Shown: positions 6,915 to 45,831, counted from the first letter of the stretch. The stretch is 64,000 nt of DNA from Candidatus Nealsonbacteria bacterium (GCA_011050465.1 DRFQ01000009.1:128334-192333); one strand, 5' to 3'. Notes: a model not told the origin generated them from the sequence alone. Translations and numbers: made by a program.

Positions 6915-7871
6915 TTATTCTTTTAGATTTTTGCCGCTGTGAAACTTGCGATGAATATCACGGAGACGTTTATTTGTTACATGGGTATATACTTGGGTTG
7001 TAACAATATTTCTATGGCCCAAAAACTCCTGAATGCTTCTTAAATCAACGCCCTGGCTTAACAGATCTGTAGCGTAAGAATGCCGAAGGGTGTGGGGGGT
7101 AGTAAAAACGGGGACACCGGCCAATACGGCGTATTTTTTTACGATTCTCTCTATGGACCGAGGCGTTAAACGACTCTCTGCATCTTTTCTGGCCCTATAA
7201 TGAATAAATAAGGCCTTTTCTTTGTCTTTTCGGGTATCCAGATATTTTTTAATCCAGGACAGAGCCCTTTCTGAAAAATAGACTGTTCTGGGATGGCTTC
7301 CTTTGCCAATAATACTAAGTTCTAAATCCTTCTTATCTCTTATATTAACAAATTGCTCTTGGTTAAGGGCAACTAATTCAGCTATTCTTAGGCCTGTTGA
7401 GAAAAAGGACTCTAAAATAGCCTTATCCCTTAAGCCAATAGTGTCTTTTAACTTGGGAGTTGTTAAAAGCTTCTCAATTTGCTCCAAATTAAGGAATTTT
7501 ACGGTTTTTTCCTTGCTGGCTGTCTTTGGAAGACCTATTTTATCTGCGGGGAGTGAAGCTATGTCTTTAGCTGTAAAATAGCCCAGAAGGGCTCTCAGGG
7601 CGATTAAATAGTAGTTCTGGGTGACTTTCTTGAGAGACTGGCCCTTATTGCCCTGAAATCTGGAAAGATAAAGTCTATAAGTCCAGATATCGTCAGCAGT
7701 CAATTCATGGGGTCTCAAATCCGCCTTTTTGGCTCCCTTAAGCCACGAAACAAACTTCCCAAGGTAATGCTTATAATTTTCCTGGGTTTTGTCTGCTAAA
7801 CCTTTTTCAACTTCGCAATAATCTAAAAAATCGGGAATATGTTTTAAAATTGGTTTATCTGATTGTTTCAT
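6915..7871 (-). CDS. tyrosine site-specific recombinase (XerC/D-like)
   Basis: C-terminal HTLRHSYATDLL...LGHRNIVTTQVYTHV (R-H-R-Y catalytic pattern) and an N-terminal SAM-like domain. Confidence 0.9.
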   Translation of the reverse strand: MKQSDKPILKHIPDFLDYCEVEKGLADKTQENYKHYLGKFVSWLKGAKKADLRPHELTADDIWTYRLYLSRFQGNKGQSLKKVTQNYYLIALRALLGYFTAKDIASLPADKIGLPKTASKEKTVKFLNLEQIEKLLTTPKLKDTIGLRDKAILESFFSTGLRIAELVALNQEQFVNIRDKKDLELSIIGKGSHPRTVYFSERALSWIKKYLDTRKDKEKALFIHYRARKDAESRLTPRSIERIVKKYAVLAGVPVFTTPHTLRHSYATDLLSQGVDLRSIQEFLGHRNIVTTQVYTHVTNKRLRDIHRKFHSGKNLKE

Positions 7872-18363: not shown

Positions 18364-18867
18364 TTATGGGATTTCTAATTGGTTAGTTATCCAGCTAATA
18401 CATTTCGGAATATAAATGTCTCTAATATGTTTTTCTAATTTTCCTCCTGAGCAAAAAAAGATATTGTCAATTTTAAAAAATTCAGGATACTTTTTGCATG
18501 TCTCTTCTTTGATTTTCATTTCTTCCTGGACTGCCTTTGTTCCACTCTCCTTCAACCTCCTTTCCCACTCTTCTTCTAATTTATTATACTTTTCATCACA
18601 CCACGATTGAAATGGCGACCTATAATCCATCAGGCCTCCTTCTATTATTTCTTGCATTAATTCCTCAGCATTCTTCAATTTTTCTTGAAGCTCAGCCATT
18701 CTCTGAGATTCTTCTTTTGTAATAGTTCTTGGTTTTTGAAAAACATCAGAGATACTGGCCGTAGAAGAAGTAAATATGTCCAGCTGGTACACAATAATCC
18801 CTAAAAGTATAATGGTAGCTAAAGTTGCTATTATGAATGGAATTTTAGTAAAATTTCGTTGTTCCAT
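18364..18867 (-). CDS. membrane-anchored hypothetical protein (167 aa)
   Basis: N-terminal TM helix and a charged coiled region. Confidence 0.55.
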   Translation of the reverse strand: MEQRNFTKIPFIIATLATIILLGIIVYQLDIFTSSTASISDVFQKPRTITKEESQRMAELQEKLKNAEELMQEIIEGGLMDYRSPFQSWCDEKYNKLEEEWERRLKESGTKAVQEEMKIKEETCKKYPEFFKIDNIFFCSGGKLEKHIRDIYIPKCISWITNQLEIP

Positions 18868-20296: not shown

Positions 20297-20517
20297 AAAA
20301 TATTAAACGTGATTATTTAATTTTTATCACATTTTTTAATTTTTTCTTTCATAAATTTTCTTTACCCATATACCTATTTTGGGTAGTGGTTGGCTCAACT
20401 TCCCTTGTCCGTCCGAAGCCCAAAGGGCGAAGAAGGAGGCCTGCCCTGAATCGACTGATTCCGGAGCCTAAATTCCTGCCCCGTAGTTCTGCCTCAGGCG
20501 GATACTGCTGGGGTTAG

Positions 20518-21144
20518 TTATTTATTTTTACCGTCAATGACAATTAAAGCATGGAAATCTTGATATAATCGAAAATCTTTTCTTAGTTTCTGTTCGAATA
20601 GTTTTTGCAAAAATGCGTAGGATAAATCCTTGGCCAGGCTTCGTTTTTGAACTAAGCGTCGAGTATACTCATCGATGACAAAAACTGGTTTATCTAAAGC
20701 ATAAAGTAAAATGCTGTCAGATGTTTCCGGACCAATGCCTTTTAATGTTAATAATTGTTCCCTCAACTCCTTAAGTTTTGCTTTTTTCATTCTTTCCGAA
20801 TCACTATAATTATTAAGAATAAATTCTGCCAGATAAAAAAGATAATCTCCTTTGACCTGGTAAAATCCCGATGGTTTGATTAAAGGTGCTAGCTTTTTAG
20901 CACCTAATTTATAAATATTTTTTAAAGAATTTATCTTCGTTCTCTTTAAATTATTTAAAGCTAATTCTACATTTTTCCAGTTCGTTCTTTGGGTTAAAAT
21001 CGCGCCAATCATCACTTCTTCTCTTTCTTTTCTGGTTTTAGGTCTTTTACACCAAAGAACCCATTGTCCTTTAGGTAACCCGTATTTTCTTTTCAACTCT
21101 TTGTATAATTTCTCAAAAGCATTCATTCTCAATTTTAAGTTCAA
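20518..21144 (-). CDS. HhH-GPD (endonuclease III-like) DNA glycosylase domain protein
   Basis: LLTLKGIGPETSDSILLYALDKPVFVIDEYTRR. An alternative start at 21126 (MNAFEKL) is possible. Confidence 0.8.
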   Translation of the reverse strand: MNLKLRMNAFEKLYKELKRKYGLPKGQWVLWCKRPKTRKEREEVMIGAILTQRTNWKNVELALNNLKRTKINSLKNIYKLGAKKLAPLIKPSGFYQVKGDYLFYLAEFILNNYSDSERMKKAKLKELREQLLTLKGIGPETSDSILLYALDKPVFVIDEYTRRLVQKRSLAKDLSYAFLQKLFEQKLRKDFRLYQDFHALIVIDGKNK

Positions 21145-38776: not shown

Positions 38777-38847
38777 CTCTTGATCCCCTACCACTTTTTA
38801 TCTTTTATGTTTACATTCTATCTCAAACCTAAAAAAGTGGTGGGGGG

Positions 38848-38875
38848 TTGACTAAAGCTGTAGAAGAATTATCAT
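38848..38875 (+). promoter_or_regulatory. promoter of structured element copy 1
   Basis: GGTGGGGGGTTGACT-N16-TATCAT, about 85% identical to 44487-44520 on the minus strand. Confidence 0.6.
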
Positions 38876-38881
38876 TAACTC

Positions 38882-39079
38882 AGGAGAGAGGAGGTGGTCG
38901 CTTTTACCTTCGCGAACAACCCAGGCTGGGGCGGCCTGGGACGAATGACCTCCCTCTGGTCATTGGTCACTTTCTCTCTCCTATCAACTCTTTACAGTTC
39001 TTTCTACGACAAGCTCTTTGGGACGTATGTCCCACATCGCAGGGCCACCACCAACAACAACATCGGTGGCCTTTTTTTT
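38882..39079 (+). ncRNA. structured non-coding element, copy 1 (about 200 nt)
   Basis: 15-bp closing helix GGAGAGAGGAGGTGG / CCACTTTCTCTCTCC. Inner hairpins CCCAGGC/GCCTGGG and AATGACC/GGTCATT. 3' hairpin TGGGAC-GTAT-GTCCCA, then terminator GGCCACC...GGTGGCC plus T8. Confidence 0.5.
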
Positions 39080-39106
39080 GACAAATCATTAAGGATGTAA
39101 TATGGT
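39078..39106 (+). promoter_or_regulatory. P1-family promoter
   Basis: TTGACAAATCATTAAGGATGTAATATGGT; its -35 overlaps the preceding T-run. Confidence 0.65.
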
Positions 39107-39151
39107 TAAGTAGCAATAAACAGCACATTCCCAAGAAGAAGGGAATCAAAG

Positions 39152-39550
39152 ATGGCTCAAAGCCCATCGGAAATAGAAAAGAAAACCCGCCTTAAAGAAT
39201 TATGGATGTTACTATTTGGTAACCCAATCAATCTAACTGACCCCGAGATTGAAAGATTACTTGAGTCTGAAAAAGAACTTAGAACAATTTTGCATTTTAC
39301 CTACAGTGGATTTCCCCATCAGATAGAAAGAGTAAAAAAACATCATGCCAAAAAGAAAGAGCTATCTGAACTGCCTACAGAGAAGTTGGTGGAAATGAAA
39401 TGTGCGATAGAAGAAAATAGACTGGCTGTTCTTAGGTCAACCAACGAGGAAGAACTTTCAGATTCATTCTTTGAGGCTCCTCCCATTGACTCCAATGAAC
39501 ACATCCTGAATGAGATTCTAAAAGAACGGGGTGTTGACTGGCGAAAATAG
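39152..39550 (+). CDS. hypothetical protein (132 aa), cassette e
   Basis: Own P1 promoter and terminator. Confidence 0.55.
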   Translation: MAQSPSEIEKKTRLKELWMLLFGNPINLTDPEIERLLESEKELRTILHFTYSGFPHQIERVKKHHAKKKELSELPTEKLVEMKCAIEENRLAVLRSTNEEELSDSFFEAPPIDSNEHILNEILKERGVDWRK

Positions 39551-39588
39551 AAAGATTCTTAAACAGGCAATCCCGATTCGATATATAA

Positions 39589-39622
39589 GCCTCTGGCTCA
39601 CGCTAAGAGGCCTTTTTGTTTT
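39589..39622 (+). terminator. T1-like terminator (cassette e)
   Basis: GCCTCTGGCTCACGCTAAGAGGCC plus TTTTTGTTTT. Confidence 0.75.
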
Positions 39623-40493: not shown

Positions 40494-40522
40494 TTGACAA
40501 ATTCAAAGTATGGGAGTATAAT
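40494..40522 (+). promoter_or_regulatory. consensus promoter of structured element copy 2
   Basis: TTGACA-N17-TATAAT. Confidence 0.65.
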
Positions 40523-40528
40523 GCTATT

Positions 40529-40797
40529 ATTGACTGATATTCGTTCTTTTTGAAAAAATGTTGTCAGCTATTCAGCAAATTGTTCATCTGAAAAGGTGGT
40601 CAGCTTGCTGGACAGATGAAAGGAGACGTTCGCCAATAGCCCAAGATGGTGGAGCTGTCGCAGGCGCCGGCCAGCTTGGGCGCACTAGATCAACCAGATC
40701 ATCCGCGCGTATACCTGCCATCTGTTCGGCACAGCACTTTTCGAGGACTTATGTCCTCACCTATAGGGTCACCCATAACAACAACGGTGGCCCTTTT
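40529..40797 (+). ncRNA. candidate non-coding transcript sharing the 3' module of copy 1
   Basis: GAGGAC-TTAT-GTCCTC hairpin plus GGGTCACC..AACAACAAC..GGTGGCCC terminator. There are two compensatory changes relative to 39019-39071. Confidence 0.35.
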
Positions 40798-40829
40798 ACT
40801 TTCTACCTATCTTTTAGATGGGTTTTTGT

Positions 40830-40858
40830 TTGACAAATAACTAGAAATGTAATAATAT
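40830..40858 (+). promoter_or_regulatory. P1-family promoter
   Basis: TTGACAAATAACTAGAAATGTAATAATAT. Confidence 0.6.
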
Positions 40859-41151: not shown

Positions 41152-41171
41152 CAAAAGGAGTTATTGGGCTT

Positions 41172-41246
41172 GCCCTCCCAAATTCGCCGCAGAGGCGAAC
41201 TTAGGCGGGCTTGACTTATTTATTGAGGTTGTTATGATATAAAATC
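41172..41246 (+). repeat. 75-bp inverted repeat, left arm (hairpin plus promoter)
   Basis: GCCCTCCCAAATTCGCCGCAGAGGCGAACTTAGGCGGGCTTGACTTATTTATTGAGGTTGTTATGATATAAAATC. 74/75 identical to the reverse complement of 45285-45359. Confidence 0.9.
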
Positions 41247-41283
41247 GTAGAGGAAGGACAGCACTTTCAAGGAGGTTAAAAAG

Positions 41284-41568: not shown

Positions 41569-41752
41569 CCTAATTACTTTATAGGTTCTTGGTAGAAGTT
41601 CTTTTAATTAATCCGATATAAACCGCAATCCGGCTCAAGGTCCTCCCGACACTCGTCAGGAGGCTTTTTTATTTCCCCGATACGCTCACAGGACAGAAAC
41701 TAAAAAAAACGGCACGAAATTATCGTACCGACCAAAACAGCAACACGTATTT

Positions 41753-42724
41753 TTAATGTACCTGCTTTTGCCTGATTATTTCCCGCAATACTCCCTCAAC
41801 TAATTTCAGGCTTTTTTCGTCTATTATAGAGACAGCCAGCACTTCTTTTCCTGTTTTTTTGAGGAGGGCCATTTTCTTTTTAATGTCTTTTTCGGGCAGT
41901 AAGTCGGTTTTGGTCAGAAAAACGTATTCCGGCTTTAATAAAAGCTCCTTATTGTAAACCTCAAGTTCATTCCTGATGGTTTTGTAGTCTGCCAAAGGAT
42001 CTTGGGATTCAGACGAAATAAAATGGAAAAGGATTTTTGTTCTTTCAATGTGCCGAAGGAATTTAATGCCTAAACCCTTGCCTAAAGAAGCTCCCTCAAT
42101 AAGGCCCGGGACGTCAGCCAAAACGAGCCCGTAATAAACTCCCAAGTTGGGATTCAGGGTCGTAAAAAGATAATTAGCCACTTTACTTTTAGCCTTGGTC
42201 AGCTCGTTTAATAAACTGGATTTACCGACATTCGGCAAGCCGACAAACCCAACATCAGCTATCATCTTCAATTCCAATCTCAATTCGTATTCCTGCCCCA
42301 AAGAACCTTCTTCAAATTCCCTGGGAGTCGTATTAATAGATGATCTAAATTTAAAGTTGCCCCGCCCTCCTTTGCCGCCTTCAGCCATCAATGAACGCTG
42401 CCCTACAAAAACAATTTCTGAATCCTGTTTCAAGAACAAATTATGAATGACCGTACCCACGGGTACCTTTAAGAAAAGGTCTTTACCGTCTGCGCCGTCG
42501 TTGAATCCCTTTTTGCCGTTTTCCCCATTTTCAGCTGACAGTTCTTTTTTGTAGCGAAATTGATTCAAAACACTTAGATCAGAAACCCCTTCAAGATAAA
42601 CACTGCCTCCCCGACCGCCGTCCCCACCGGTAGGCCCGAGAGTCATTTTAACCTTACTGAAAGCCACGGCCCCCCTGCCGCCGTCACCAGCTTTCACCCT
42701 AATTTTGACGTCGTCAATCAGCAT
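41753..42724 (-). CDS. obg: GTPase Obg
   Basis: Gly-rich Obg fold (GGDGGRGG, GGKGGRGN) and GLPNVGKSS G1 motif. Confidence 0.93.
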   Translation of the reverse strand: MLIDDVKIRVKAGDGGRGAVAFSKVKMTLGPTGGDGGRGGSVYLEGVSDLSVLNQFRYKKELSAENGENGKKGFNDGADGKDLFLKVPVGTVIHNLFLKQDSEIVFVGQRSLMAEGGKGGRGNFKFRSSINTTPREFEEGSLGQEYELRLELKMIADVGFVGLPNVGKSSLLNELTKAKSKVANYLFTTLNPNLGVYYGLVLADVPGLIEGASLGKGLGIKFLRHIERTKILFHFISSESQDPLADYKTIRNELEVYNKELLLKPEYVFLTKTDLLPEKDIKKKMALLKKTGKEVLAVSIIDEKSLKLVEGVLREIIRQKQVH

Positions 42725-42898
42725 ATTATTTAATTATTTTGCGCGTGGACTATAAAGCAACCTTATAATATCATATAATCCATAGATGCTAGAAGCCCAT
42801 ACATCTGGCATAGATTGTACGCTTTTTCATATAGCCTTATCCTGGATTTTTACTTGCTTTTTTATATATTTTTCCTATAATTAAAACGGAAGACAAAA

Positions 42899-44135: not shown

Positions 44136-44171
44136 CAAAAATAGTAAGAGCTCATCTTATGATGAGCTCTT
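44136..44171 (-). terminator. intrinsic terminator
   Basis: AAGAGCTCATC-ATAA-GATGAGCTCTT plus ACTATTTTT on the minus strand. Confidence 0.8.
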
Positions 44172-44307
44172 GAGCAATGTGCCCTTGTGCGTCTTCCGGC
44201 TGTTCTCCAACCGGAGCTTCTGCATAAAGAGTTGCAAGCAAAGGAAGGTGAAGAAGACATGGATCCTTCCTAATCAGTTCTATGATTTTCTTGAAAACAT
44301 TTATCAA
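44152..44307 (-). CDS. possible 51-aa protein downstream of structured element copy 3
   Basis: TTG start 9 nt after AGGAGG. (M)INVFKKIIELIRKDPCLLHLPLLATLYAEAPVGEQPEDAQGHIAQELIIR. The stop lies inside the terminator stem. Confidence 0.3.
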   Translation of the reverse strand: MINVFKKIIELIRKDPCLLHLPLLATLYAEAPVGEQPEDAQGHIAQELIIR

Positions 44308-44351
44308 TTCGGTTTACCTCCTTTCCTGCAATCATTCTTAAAAGAACTAGT

Positions 44352-44480
44352 AGGAGAGAGAAAGTGGCAGGGTTATGGGGGGAACACAGCAGGTCACGTG
44401 CGTTCCCGTGGCACCTTGGGTGAAGGTGATAGCTCTCTCTCCGCGTGAAGAGGGAGGTCAAGAACCACCTTCTCTCTCCC
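44352..44480 (-). ncRNA. structured non-coding element, copy 3 (acts as a 5' leader)
   Basis: 15-bp helix GGAGAGAGAAGGTGG / CCACTTTCTCTCTCC encloses a divergent 97-nt core with GGGAAC/GTTCCC and CACCTT/AAGGTG hairpins. Confidence 0.45.
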
Positions 44481-44486
44481 AAGTTA

Positions 44487-44514
44487 ATTATAGCTCTTCT
44501 ACATTTTTAGTCAA
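44487..44514 (-). promoter_or_regulatory. promoter of structured element copy 3
   Basis: Minus strand reads GGTGGGGTTGACT-N16-TATAAT. Confidence 0.65.
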
Positions 44515-44688
44515 CCCCACCACCAATCCTAGGTTAGTCTATTGAACTTACAACGACTTAAGCCGATAGGCGGCTTCGCCTTATGGCTTTTTTAAATTCA
44601 TCATGCCTTGGCTGGGACTGGTGGGGGGCCAAGAAACAAACAAAAAGGCCTCTTGGCATAAGCCAGAGGCTATAAAAAGATTGGTTTT

Positions 44689-45207: not shown

Positions 45208-45284
45208 CGTTCTCTCCTTTCCTTGTTCGCCTTTTTCGCAGCTACTCTCTATTCAATTAGGAAGGTACAGACCCTCCTGCCTAT

Positions 45285-45359
45285 GATTTTATATCTTAAC
45301 AACCTCAATAAATAAGTCAAGCCCGCCTAAGTTCGCCTCTGCGGCGAATTTGGGAGGGC
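45285..45359 (-). repeat. 75-bp inverted repeat, right arm
   Basis: Reverse complement of 41172-41246 with one mismatch in the -10 box (TAAGAT versus TATGAT). Confidence 0.9.
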
Positions 45360-45375
45360 AAATTTAAGAAACCCT

Positions 45376-45831
45376 TTATTTCCTTATCCAGCCTTTTAGT
45401 CTTTCCCAGAAGTTTTTGCCGGCTTTGGAAACTTCTTCTTTTATTTCCTGCTTTTCTTTTTCTAACTCCCTGGGTATTGCTTCTTTTCTTTTTTCCACTT
45501 CTTTATTAAAAATACCAAAAATCTTTTGCCATATCCAATCAACCTTGGGCCAGATTTTAGAATCCCAGATGTCTATGAACCAATTCGCCATTCTTTGCCA
45601 AATCTCTACAGCTTGCTGCCAAACTCCCTTTACGGCCCTTGGTAAAGGTTCAATGATTTTTTTAACAAAAGACCAAACTTCCTCAAAAGTCTCTGGCACC
45701 TTCGGCGACTGCTTTACGTCTTGAGCCAAAGCGAAACTTGGCAGGAGTAAACTAAAAACAAAAAACAAAAAACAAAAAACAAGGAACGGGGAGCGAGACT
45801 CATTATTGATTATTCTTTGTTCTTTATTCAT
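45376..45831 (-). CDS. secreted/membrane-anchored hypothetical protein (151 aa)
   Basis: N-terminal hydrophobic segment; Trp-rich helical body. Confidence 0.55.
   Translation of the reverse strand: MNKEQRIINNESRSPFLVFCFLFFVFSLLLPSFALAQDVKQSPKVPETFEEVWSFVKKIIEPLPRAVKGVWQQAVEIWQRMANWFIDIWDSKIWPKVDWIWQKIFGIFNKEVEKRKEAIPRELEKEKQEIKEEVSKAGKNFWERLKGWIRK

Follow-up and report, generated by a model that had tools for sequence, protein, structure and literature searches.

Small RNAs (sRNAs) with C-rich loops, in Gram-positive bacteria and others, pair with GGAGG-type ribosome-binding sites. RsaE/RoxS, the UCCC-motif Rsa RNAs of S. aureus and sX13 of Xanthomonas are stand-alone genes of this kind, with their own promoter, an intrinsic terminator and several hairpins. 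Other described elements stabilise mRNAs from the 5' end; the STAB-SD of cryIIIA acts by binding the 30S subunit, and 5'-terminal stem-loops are found in the ompA, aprE and ermC leaders. In Gram-positive bacteria, mRNAs are known to be stabilised by such Shine-Dalgarno (SD)-like 5' elements and 5'-terminal stems, as with the cryIIIA STAB-SD and the leaders of aprE and ermC. The present analysis concerns three units, designated copies 1, 2 and 3, in a 64,000-nt stretch of DNA (the window) from a Candidatus Nealsonbacteria bacterium (DRFQ01000009.1:128334-192333). Copies 1 and 3 are versions of a repeated element with a long closing helix, P1. The units appear to be species-restricted representatives of the broad bacterial sRNA class and lie outside any described family. 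They are read here, with moderate confidence and from sequence and folding predictions, as independently transcribed, structured, non-coding small RNA genes. They would form a small paralogous family, so far found in one marine-sediment species of the Patescibacteria (candidate phyla radiation, CPR), and may act through a helical clamp combined with SD pairing.

The units share the gene organization of the C-rich-loop sRNAs, and copy 1 has a C/U-rich motif complementary to GGAGG-type ribosome-binding sites in the loop of its third hairpin. However, there is no sequence or structure homology with these RNAs, since the sX13 model scores 15.5 bits against a gathering threshold of 50 and RsaE gives no match. 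The known RNAs also do not have a 15-18 bp SD/anti-SD-like clamp, and the motif in copy 3 is paired. The units are like the 5' stabilisers in that an SD-like sequence not followed by a start codon lies at the very 5' end, and a 5'-terminal helix buries this end. Unlike in STAB-SD, an intramolecular helix holds the SD-like strand, and two of the three units have no downstream open reading frame (ORF).

The feature is real. The elements described in an earlier note on this DNA could all be located, in each case no more than a few bases from the positions it gave. Copy 1 spans 38848-39079 on the plus strand and copy 3 spans 44514-44351 on the minus strand. A 55-nt block, 85% identical between the two as the note had estimated for the promoters, contains the promoter TTGACT-16-TAT(C/A)AT and the purine strand GGAGAGAG(G/A)AGGTGG. 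Both promoter hexamers are kept and the spacer varies. The 5' strand GGAGAGAGRAGGTGG is located at 38883-38897 (+) and 44479-44465 (-). A search of the window for this strand with up to two mismatches gives four matches, all in copies 1 and 3, compared to 0.13 expected. The 3' strand CACTTTCTCTCTCCTA, a 16-nt pyrimidine sequence at 38968-38983 (+) and 44366-44351 (-), is identical in both copies, and the combined gapped arm pattern results in two matches compared to 0.00 expected. The cores between the strands cannot be aligned. They have in common only the 11-nt motif GACCTCCCTCT, which occurs exactly twice in the window, once per core and at differing positions; differing cores with GC hairpins and this shared motif had been noted before. 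The arm-to-arm spacing differs by 28 nt, which is not a multiple of 3, so the conserved blocks do fall in different reading frames, as had been claimed.

The order along the repeated unit is an upstream terminator, a helix designated IR-A, the promoter, P1 with its variable core, and a short common linker, AGTTCTTT. The earlier note described the promoter and P1 half of this arrangement, but the unit is larger and begins with IR-A upstream of the promoter. Two of its details also needed correction, as the 3' strand of copy 1 reads TCAC and not CCAC and the core of copy 1 is 69-70 nt long and not 65. Its statements that copy 1 ends in its own terminator (a hairpin and U8) and that copy 3 continues into an SD and a 51-codon ORF were correct. 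There is no terminator between the P1 domain of copy 3 and this ORF. The coordinates of all features are given in Table 1.

Table 1. Positions of the promoters, helices, motifs, ORF and terminators of the three units in the window
Feature	Position	Strand	Remark
Copy 1 IR-A, arms 38782-38799 / 38832-38849, 32-nt loop	38782-38849	+	18 bp, z -5.05
Copy 1 promoter, TTGACT-16-TATCAT	38848-38875	+	10/12 consensus matches
Copy 1 P1 5' strand AGGAGAGAGGAGGUGG, SD-like	38882-38897	+	starts ~7 nt after the -10 box, at or near the predicted transcript 5' end
Copy 1 core, three hairpins (38898-38915, 38920-38940, 38944-38964)	38898-38967	+	minimum free energy fold equals centroid
Copy 1 motif GACCTCCCTCT	38947-38957	+	UCCCUCU (38951-38957) in the 7-nt loop of hairpin 3
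Copy 1 P1 3' strand CACUUUCUCUCUCCU, anti-SD-like	38968-38982	+	pattern search, fold
Copy 1 U/C-rich linker, predicted unpaired	38983-39018	+	two strain substitutions inside
Copy 1 hairpin HP4 (UGGGAC-GUAU-GUCCCA), common to copy 2	39019-39034	+	fold and compensatory pairs
Copy 1 terminator: GGGCCACC, 15-nt loop with AACAACAAC, GGUGGCC, U8	39042-39079	+	homologous to copy 2 terminator
Copy 2 unit, promoter TTGACA-17-TATAAT at 40494-40522, RNA ~40529-40832	40494-40832	+	12/12 consensus matches
Copy 2 box AAAGGUGGUC	40592-40601	+	sequence
Copy 2 long inner helix	40607-40618 with 40719-40730	+	fold
Copy 2 HP4	40743-40758	+	alignment to copy 1
Copy 2 terminators	40766-40793 and 40805-40823	+	fold
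Copy 3 IR-A, arms 44630-44615 / 44529-44513, structured core ~85 nt	44513-44630	-	16 bp, one bulge, z -5.13
Copy 3 promoter, TTGACT-16-TATAAT	44514-44487	-	11/12 consensus matches
Copy 3 P1 domain, 5' strand 44481-44464, 3' strand 44368-44351, core with three hairpins	44351-44481	-	fold
Copy 3 motif GACCTCCCTCT	44459-44449	-	pairs with internal GGAGAGAGAG at 44442-44433
Copy 3 downstream part: linker, strong SD GGAAAGGAGGU (44326-44316), ORF, terminator	44146-44350	-	sequence, scans
Copy 3 51-codon ORF	44307-44152	-	no homologue but itself
Copy 3 terminator	44171-44146	-	terminator scan

The feature is very probably a structured RNA, judging from its predicted folds. P1 has 15 bp with two G-U pairs in copy 1, which agrees with the closing helix proposed in the earlier note, and 17-18 bp in copy 3. 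The minimum free energy (MFE) structure is the same as the centroid, and each P1 encloses three GC-rich hairpins. The helix domains have fold z-scores of -5.76 (copy 1) and -6.39 (copy 3), and none of 200 shuffled sequences folds as well. The predicted energy of the P1 duplex is -27 to -32 kcal/mol. Folding favours the sense over the antisense strand (-56.8 versus -43.9 kcal/mol in copy 1 and -60.8 versus -54.8 kcal/mol in copy 3), because A-C mismatches replace the G-U pairs in the antisense fold. In the alignment of P1, which covers 17 pairs and is 95.6% paired, 12 pairs are invariant and three vary on one side yet keep pairing (A-U/G-U/G-C). In AT-rich genomes, GC-rich intergenic segments classically point to structured RNA. 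The GC content of the cores is 0.57 compared to 0.365 for the window, and the three cores rank 2nd, 6th and 7th among its GC-richest 100-nt windows.

The promoters predicted for the three units are of the sigma-70 type and close to consensus, with 10 to 12 of 12 positions matched. Copies 1 and 2 each have a predicted promoter of their own and a predicted hairpin/U-run terminator. The terminator scan had a loop limit of 8 nt and therefore missed the terminator of copy 1, which has a 15-nt loop. The U-run of this terminator passes directly into the -35 box of the promoter that follows. Copy 2 is probably the unit that had been numbered so in the earlier note. It folds with a z-score of -6.55, again better than every shuffled sequence, and has in common with copy 1 a 3' module that consists of HP4 and a terminator hairpin with the loop AACAACAAC. 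The local alignment of copies 1 and 2 scores 43, compared to 16.9 +/- 2.1 in shuffles. Between the two, two of the six pairs of HP4 change on both sides (U-A to G-C and G-C to A-U) and 100% of the pairs stay paired. A box in copy 2, AAAGGUGGUC / CACUUUU, resembles the inner part of P1, and forming that pairing costs 7.3 kcal/mol relative to the MFE. The homology of the 5' part of copy 2 to P1 is suggestive only. Copy 2 also contains a 91-aa ORF, which is an orphan.

The IR-A arms, CCCC(U/C)ACCA... and ...UGGUGGGG, are kept between copies 1 and 3, and the right arm abuts the promoter and overlaps its -35 box. The interiors differ (32 versus ~85 nt). As read from the two sequences, IR-A has three two-sided and three one-sided changes that preserve pairing and no disruption. 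The G-U pairs in IR-A favour the sense strand.

The units appear to be non-coding because of the 28-nt difference in spacing, the results of the gene callers, which disagree or make no call, the orphan state of the ORFs and the loss of an ATG in a strain variant. Neither the 51-aa ORF of copy 3 nor the 91-aa ORF of copy 2 has a homologue but itself among 5.8 billion proteins. A coding reading of the units is excluded on these sequence grounds. In the strain variant, L084 (contig BAEC19-1), hairpin 3 of copy 1 is remodelled with a 24-nt insertion and the only ATG is lost (AAA); the alignment can be read with a further 1-nt deletion in this hairpin. Outside hairpin 3 there are five point changes, all at unpaired positions (hairpin loop, linker and terminator loop). 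The probability of this by chance is ~0.02-0.05, since 93 of 201 positions are unpaired. L084 keeps the copy 1 RNA and the same downstream promoter, but the downstream gene is swapped, with homology resuming around the terminator. Therefore, copy 1 is not a dedicated cis-regulator of that gene.

The 5' strand of P1 seems to be an extended ("super") SD, AGGAGGUG with its flanks, and the 3' strand and the motif CCUCCCUCU seem to mimic an anti-SD. When paired with the textbook sequence of the 16S 3' tail, GGAUCACCUCCUUUCU, the 5' arm of copy 1 forms 15 contiguous bp at a predicted -25.0 kcal/mol, close to the -26.6 kcal/mol of P1 itself and compared to -10 to -13 kcal/mol for ordinary SDs of the surrounding region and -19.7 kcal/mol for the SD of the copy 3 ORF. 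In copy 1, UCGCUUUUACC comes after the SD-like AGGAGGUGG, and no start codon lies at a distance suited to translation. In copy 3 a TTG is located 3-6 nt downstream of the SD-like strand and is not conserved. The SD-like strand is predicted to be fully paired in both the MFE and the centroid folds. The combination of an SD-like 5' strand with an anti-SD-mimicking 3' strand and CCUCCCUCU suggests SD-directed base-pairing or stabilisation of the 5' end.

The most likely mode of action may be proposed along these lines. The transcript would begin within a few bases of P1, which would bury its 5' end in the helix, and this clamp may protect the RNA from 5'-end-dependent decay. The C/U-rich motif CCUCCCUCU, predicted to be exposed in the loop of hairpin 3 of copy 1, could pair with GGAGG-type ribosome-binding sites of target mRNAs. 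The cores would be exchangeable cargo and the clamp would be the conserved scaffold. Copies 1 and 2 would end in the common hairpin and an intrinsic terminator, and P1 of copy 3 would be the leader of the orphan 51-codon ORF.

Several observations weigh against the reading as sRNA genes with this mode of action. None of the searches found a homologue outside the species, so the support comes from three paralogues and one strain variant. The 64-kb window yielded no mRNA target with a longer complementary stretch. P1 has no two-sided compensatory change between copies 1 and 3, and one strain SNP results in an A-C mismatch in P1 of copy 3. The C/U motif of copy 3 is predicted to be paired and not exposed. 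Neither the proposed model nor its rivals explain IR-A, which is located upstream of where transcription is predicted to start. Finally, the high identity of the arms could be due to recent duplication or gene conversion in a recombining region and not to selection.

The main rival is a cis-acting 5' module. The promoter and P1 would be a generic 5' stabiliser or leader for any sequence that follows, copy 3 would be its intact form, copy 1 would have lost the ORF, and there would be no role in trans. This is possible, but it has a low probability. In each of the two copies P1 begins at the predicted +1 or beside it, which fits such a module, as does the way copy 3 runs without a terminator into a very strong SD and an ORF, and the stabilisers of Gram-positive bacteria are precedents. 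However, no ORF precedes the terminator in copy 1 or copy 2, and the 51-aa ORF of copy 3 has no homologue anywhere. A STAB-SD type of action would also need an opening of the SD-like strand, all of which is paired in the MFE fold. A simple stabiliser would have no need of the GC-rich multi-hairpin cores, which are maintained between strains.

The arms could also be a non-functional by-product, left over from segmental duplication or gene conversion, with helices that are incidental purine/pyrimidine inverted repeats. The region around the units reuses promoter and terminator sequences many times, and cassettes are swapped or inserted there between strains. The elements are absent at the syntenic site of a relative with a 64% identical helix-turn-helix (HTH) protein and from the flanks of a genome with a 93% identical Obg. 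The lack of two-sided covariation in P1 also fits. Nevertheless, the conserved parts are precisely the two strands of each of two separate helices and the promoter hexamers, and all sequence between them has been replaced. HP4 and IR-A have compensatory changes and the strain changes avoid the stems. Considering also the extreme z-scores and the strong GC enrichment, a by-product is unlikely.

A DNA-level element is somewhat less likely again. It would be a miniature inverted-repeat transposable element (MITE), which was one option of the earlier note, or a recombination site, whose 15-bp terminal inverted repeats, together with the IR-A arms, a transposase or recombinase would recognise around variable cargo. 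Two pairs of inverted arms, nested or adjacent, are kept while their interiors vary, terminal inverted repeats with 15-18 bp arms are present, cassettes are exchanged in the region, and the window contains a tyrosine recombinase gene. As in transcribed MITEs of the Correia/ERIC type, the inverted arms adjoin promoter hexamers and the transcribed form is a long stem. However, those MITEs are multi-copy elements with conserved interiors and target-site duplications. Here, there are two copies in ~84 kb, the interiors are unrelated, and the flanks (...TTAACTCA/GGAG...CTCC/TATCAAC and ...TTAACTTG/GGAG...CTCC/TACTAGT) contain no target-site duplication. The arms are not found in 1.3 Mb of relatives, and the sole true match in the metagenome scan is from the same species. 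The helix is weaker on the opposite strand, where A-C mismatches take the place of the G-U pairs, the recombinase is 30 kb away, and there are no integron attC core sites.

A riboswitch, or a ligand- or temperature-sensing leader for the downstream gene, is very improbable, although this too had been suggested in the earlier note. The units do have a multi-hairpin junction closed by a long P1, as in riboswitch aptamers, copy 3 is located in a 5' untranslated region (UTR), and the pairing partners of its purine and pyrimidine tracts might in theory be exchanged. The cores cannot be aligned and the copies have no aptamer in common, and there is no Rfam match and no clear expression platform. An ORF follows only in copy 3, and it is an orphan. 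Copy 1 is closed off by its own terminator; the gene after it has a separate promoter and has been exchanged in the strain variant. The alternative pairings are far weaker than P1, and the SD of copy 3 is free in the MFE fold. The sRNA option of the earlier note fits best, with consensus promoters of its own, a terminator in copy 1, strand-specific GC-rich structure, no conserved ORF and a swapped downstream gene. The small protein gene (MTSLW...TFSLL, with its start at (A/T)TGACCTCCCTCT) has scarcely any probability and was rejected on the strain variant; (A/T)TGACC and ACTTTCTCTCTCCTA are in the same frame in both copies, with open frames of 51-63 codons, but L084 loses the ATG along with the remodelling of the hairpin, of its three point differences downstream in frame two alter the amino acid and one is silent, the ATG of copy 1 is not preceded by an SD, and the 5' arm is in a different frame in the two copies.

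Two other candidates were considered and rejected. A type I toxin-antitoxin system is not supported, as the 51-aa product has no transmembrane-like stretch and neither an antisense promoter nor a complementary RNA was found in the window. The arms are also not integron attC sites; the arm ends do not fit RYYYAAC / GTTRRRY, the only tyrosine recombinase is ~30 kb away, and the cassettes carry their own promoters.

The covariance-model and Rfam checks that the earlier note had proposed gave nothing outside this species. Rfam 15 results in no matches in the whole window at the gathering threshold, and in E-value mode there are only sub-threshold matches on the surrounding region and on each unit. 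The best Rfam score on copy 1 is for the Chlorobi-RRM RNA (RF01697), with 27.5 bits against a gathering threshold of 45, and the four outer pairs of stem 2 do not form. Copy 1 is like this RNA in having two adjacent hairpins followed by a pyrimidine tract. The pyrimidine tract here is one strand of P1, however, and the RRM gene is far away, beyond the right edge of the window. The motif was also sought in the 5' UTR of the nearest RRM_1 gene of the genome (L122 2606-2866), with no match, and the identity was dropped. This gene (L122 2420-2866) encodes an 86-aa protein ~7 kb beyond the right edge and has its own promoter and a 5' UTR of ~155 nt that starts ...CAGUUCUUUUUUUCUC. The string CAGUUCUUU, which is like the RRM 5' UTR, is also found in the unpaired linker of copy 1, and AGUUCUUU is found in copy 3; this may be due to chance.

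A covariance model of P1 (R1) was run against the window, 82 related loci and flanks of +/-10 kb, in total 1.38 Mb, and found only copies 1 and 3 and a weak match in L024. The L024 match (18365-18520, minus strand) comes from a relative with a 64% identical Obg. This candidate RNA lies between genes; its closing helix consists of GA/CU repeats (CUGGAGCGAGAGAGCGG / CCGCCUCUCUCUCCAG) around a small core, it has an intrinsic terminator, and its z-score is -6.2. It has no Rfam match and no homologue among the fetched loci. The candidate may be an analogue of the clamp design; homology with copies 1 and 3 is not demonstrable. A regular-expression search for 12-bp polypurine helices in the related loci gave nothing comparable.

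The 80 loci from related genomes that were anchored on Obg have only Obg in common with the window, and the arms and promoters are absent. The neighbouring HTH (MarR-like) protein has only two relatives. In the one contig examined from the relative with the 64% identical protein, a CheY-like gene is in the place of copy 3. The arms have two copies in the ~84 kb of the host genome covered by the window and its flanks. In metagenome contigs the gapped arm pattern has 24 matches, of which 23 are due to chance and one is from the same species. Viral contigs contain no match to this pattern, none to the 3' module and one chance coding match to the promoter. Comparison with phages and plasmids by blastn found nothing. 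A target search in the window for the complement of CCUCCCUCU gave no specific site, and full-text literature searches on CPR structured RNAs or sRNAs gave no relevant paper.

Patescibacteria have tiny genomes and are not culturable alone, and almost nothing is known of their regulatory RNAs. A clearly bounded and strongly structured family would be a concrete candidate for the first CPR sRNAs. The architecture is unusual in that a 5' "super-SD" would be locked by an anti-SD mimic while a second anti-SD-like motif is displayed. A further and rather speculative possibility, which is judged improbable, is a "clamp-and-cargo" scaffold. In this case the promoter and the SD:anti-SD-like helix would host rapidly exchanged hairpin cargos, with an equally conserved helix upstream. 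This could serve the modular diversification of sRNAs, or act as a decoy of the 30S subunit or of factors that recognise SD duplexes. If true, the system would sit in a hypervariable cassette island beside the restriction-modification genes of a reduced-genome CPR bacterium. The context of the island may matter as much, as cassettes are swapped between strains at reused regulatory sequences.

The host is an uncultivated member of the Patescibacteria, and the Obg protein of the window is 93% identical to that of a metagenome-assembled genome labelled Minisyncoccales. Identical or near-identical contigs are present in several marine-sediment metagenomes, and one NCBI product name is "LCGC14_... 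[marine sediment metagenome]". The RNA units sit within a 9-kb stretch at ~36.8-45.9 kb with few genes and a GC content of 0.40 compared to 0.36. This island is a mosaic of short cassettes, each with a strong promoter, a small orphan gene and a terminator, and the promoter and terminator sequences are reused many times across it. The Obg gene (41695-42774) is located in the middle of the island. It is the sole gene of the stretch that is common to related genomes (L001-L080), including the genome with the 93% identical Obg. Both flanks of Obg are wholly non-syntenic in the relatives; therefore, a core gene lies within hypervariable surroundings. Nothing informative came from scanning the island proteins with Pfam and PHROGs.

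Precomputed Pfam annotations place a defence-type cluster at 27.5-36.8 kb, directly to the left of the island. It contains restriction-modification genes (a DpnII/MboI endonuclease and D12 and EcoRI-type methylases), GmrSD-HNH, a radical-SAM protein and DUF4268. The Pfam annotation of the tyrosine recombinase gene is at 6915-7871, ~30 kb from the RNA units. Elsewhere in the window, the intergenic region 20380-20520 between two minus-strand genes has a GC content of 0.60, and neither strand folds unusually well (z ~-1). In one related locus, L001 2700-3010 resembles two halves of a tRNA gene split by an insert of ~230 nt; ARAGORN calls nothing here and it is a candidate only.

In a small sample of island genes that was scored, the SDs are strong and of the GGAGG type, at -10 to -20 kcal/mol. 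Obg (start 42724) and a 151-aa gene (start 45831) have essentially no SD, at -2 to -3 kcal/mol.

The reuse of regulatory sequences in the island can be counted. The sequence TTGACAAAT..ATGTAATA has ~6 copies and ..GAGGCCTTTTTGTTT also has ~6 copies. A 97-nt promoter block is duplicated at 41154-41250 and 45281-45377 with 91% identity. In strain L084, the 132-aa gene of the window (39125-39606) is exchanged for a 70-aa membrane gene (L084 15602-15909), and an extra 500-nt cassette (L084 9380-9883) is inserted at 45314-45325 of the window, at a GGGCTTG junction. The U-tracts or hairpins of terminators run straight into the next -35 TTGAC at 39072-39083, 40823-40835 and 45325-45335. This compact terminator-promoter junction recurs across the island and is also seen in a relative (L117, ~330-350).

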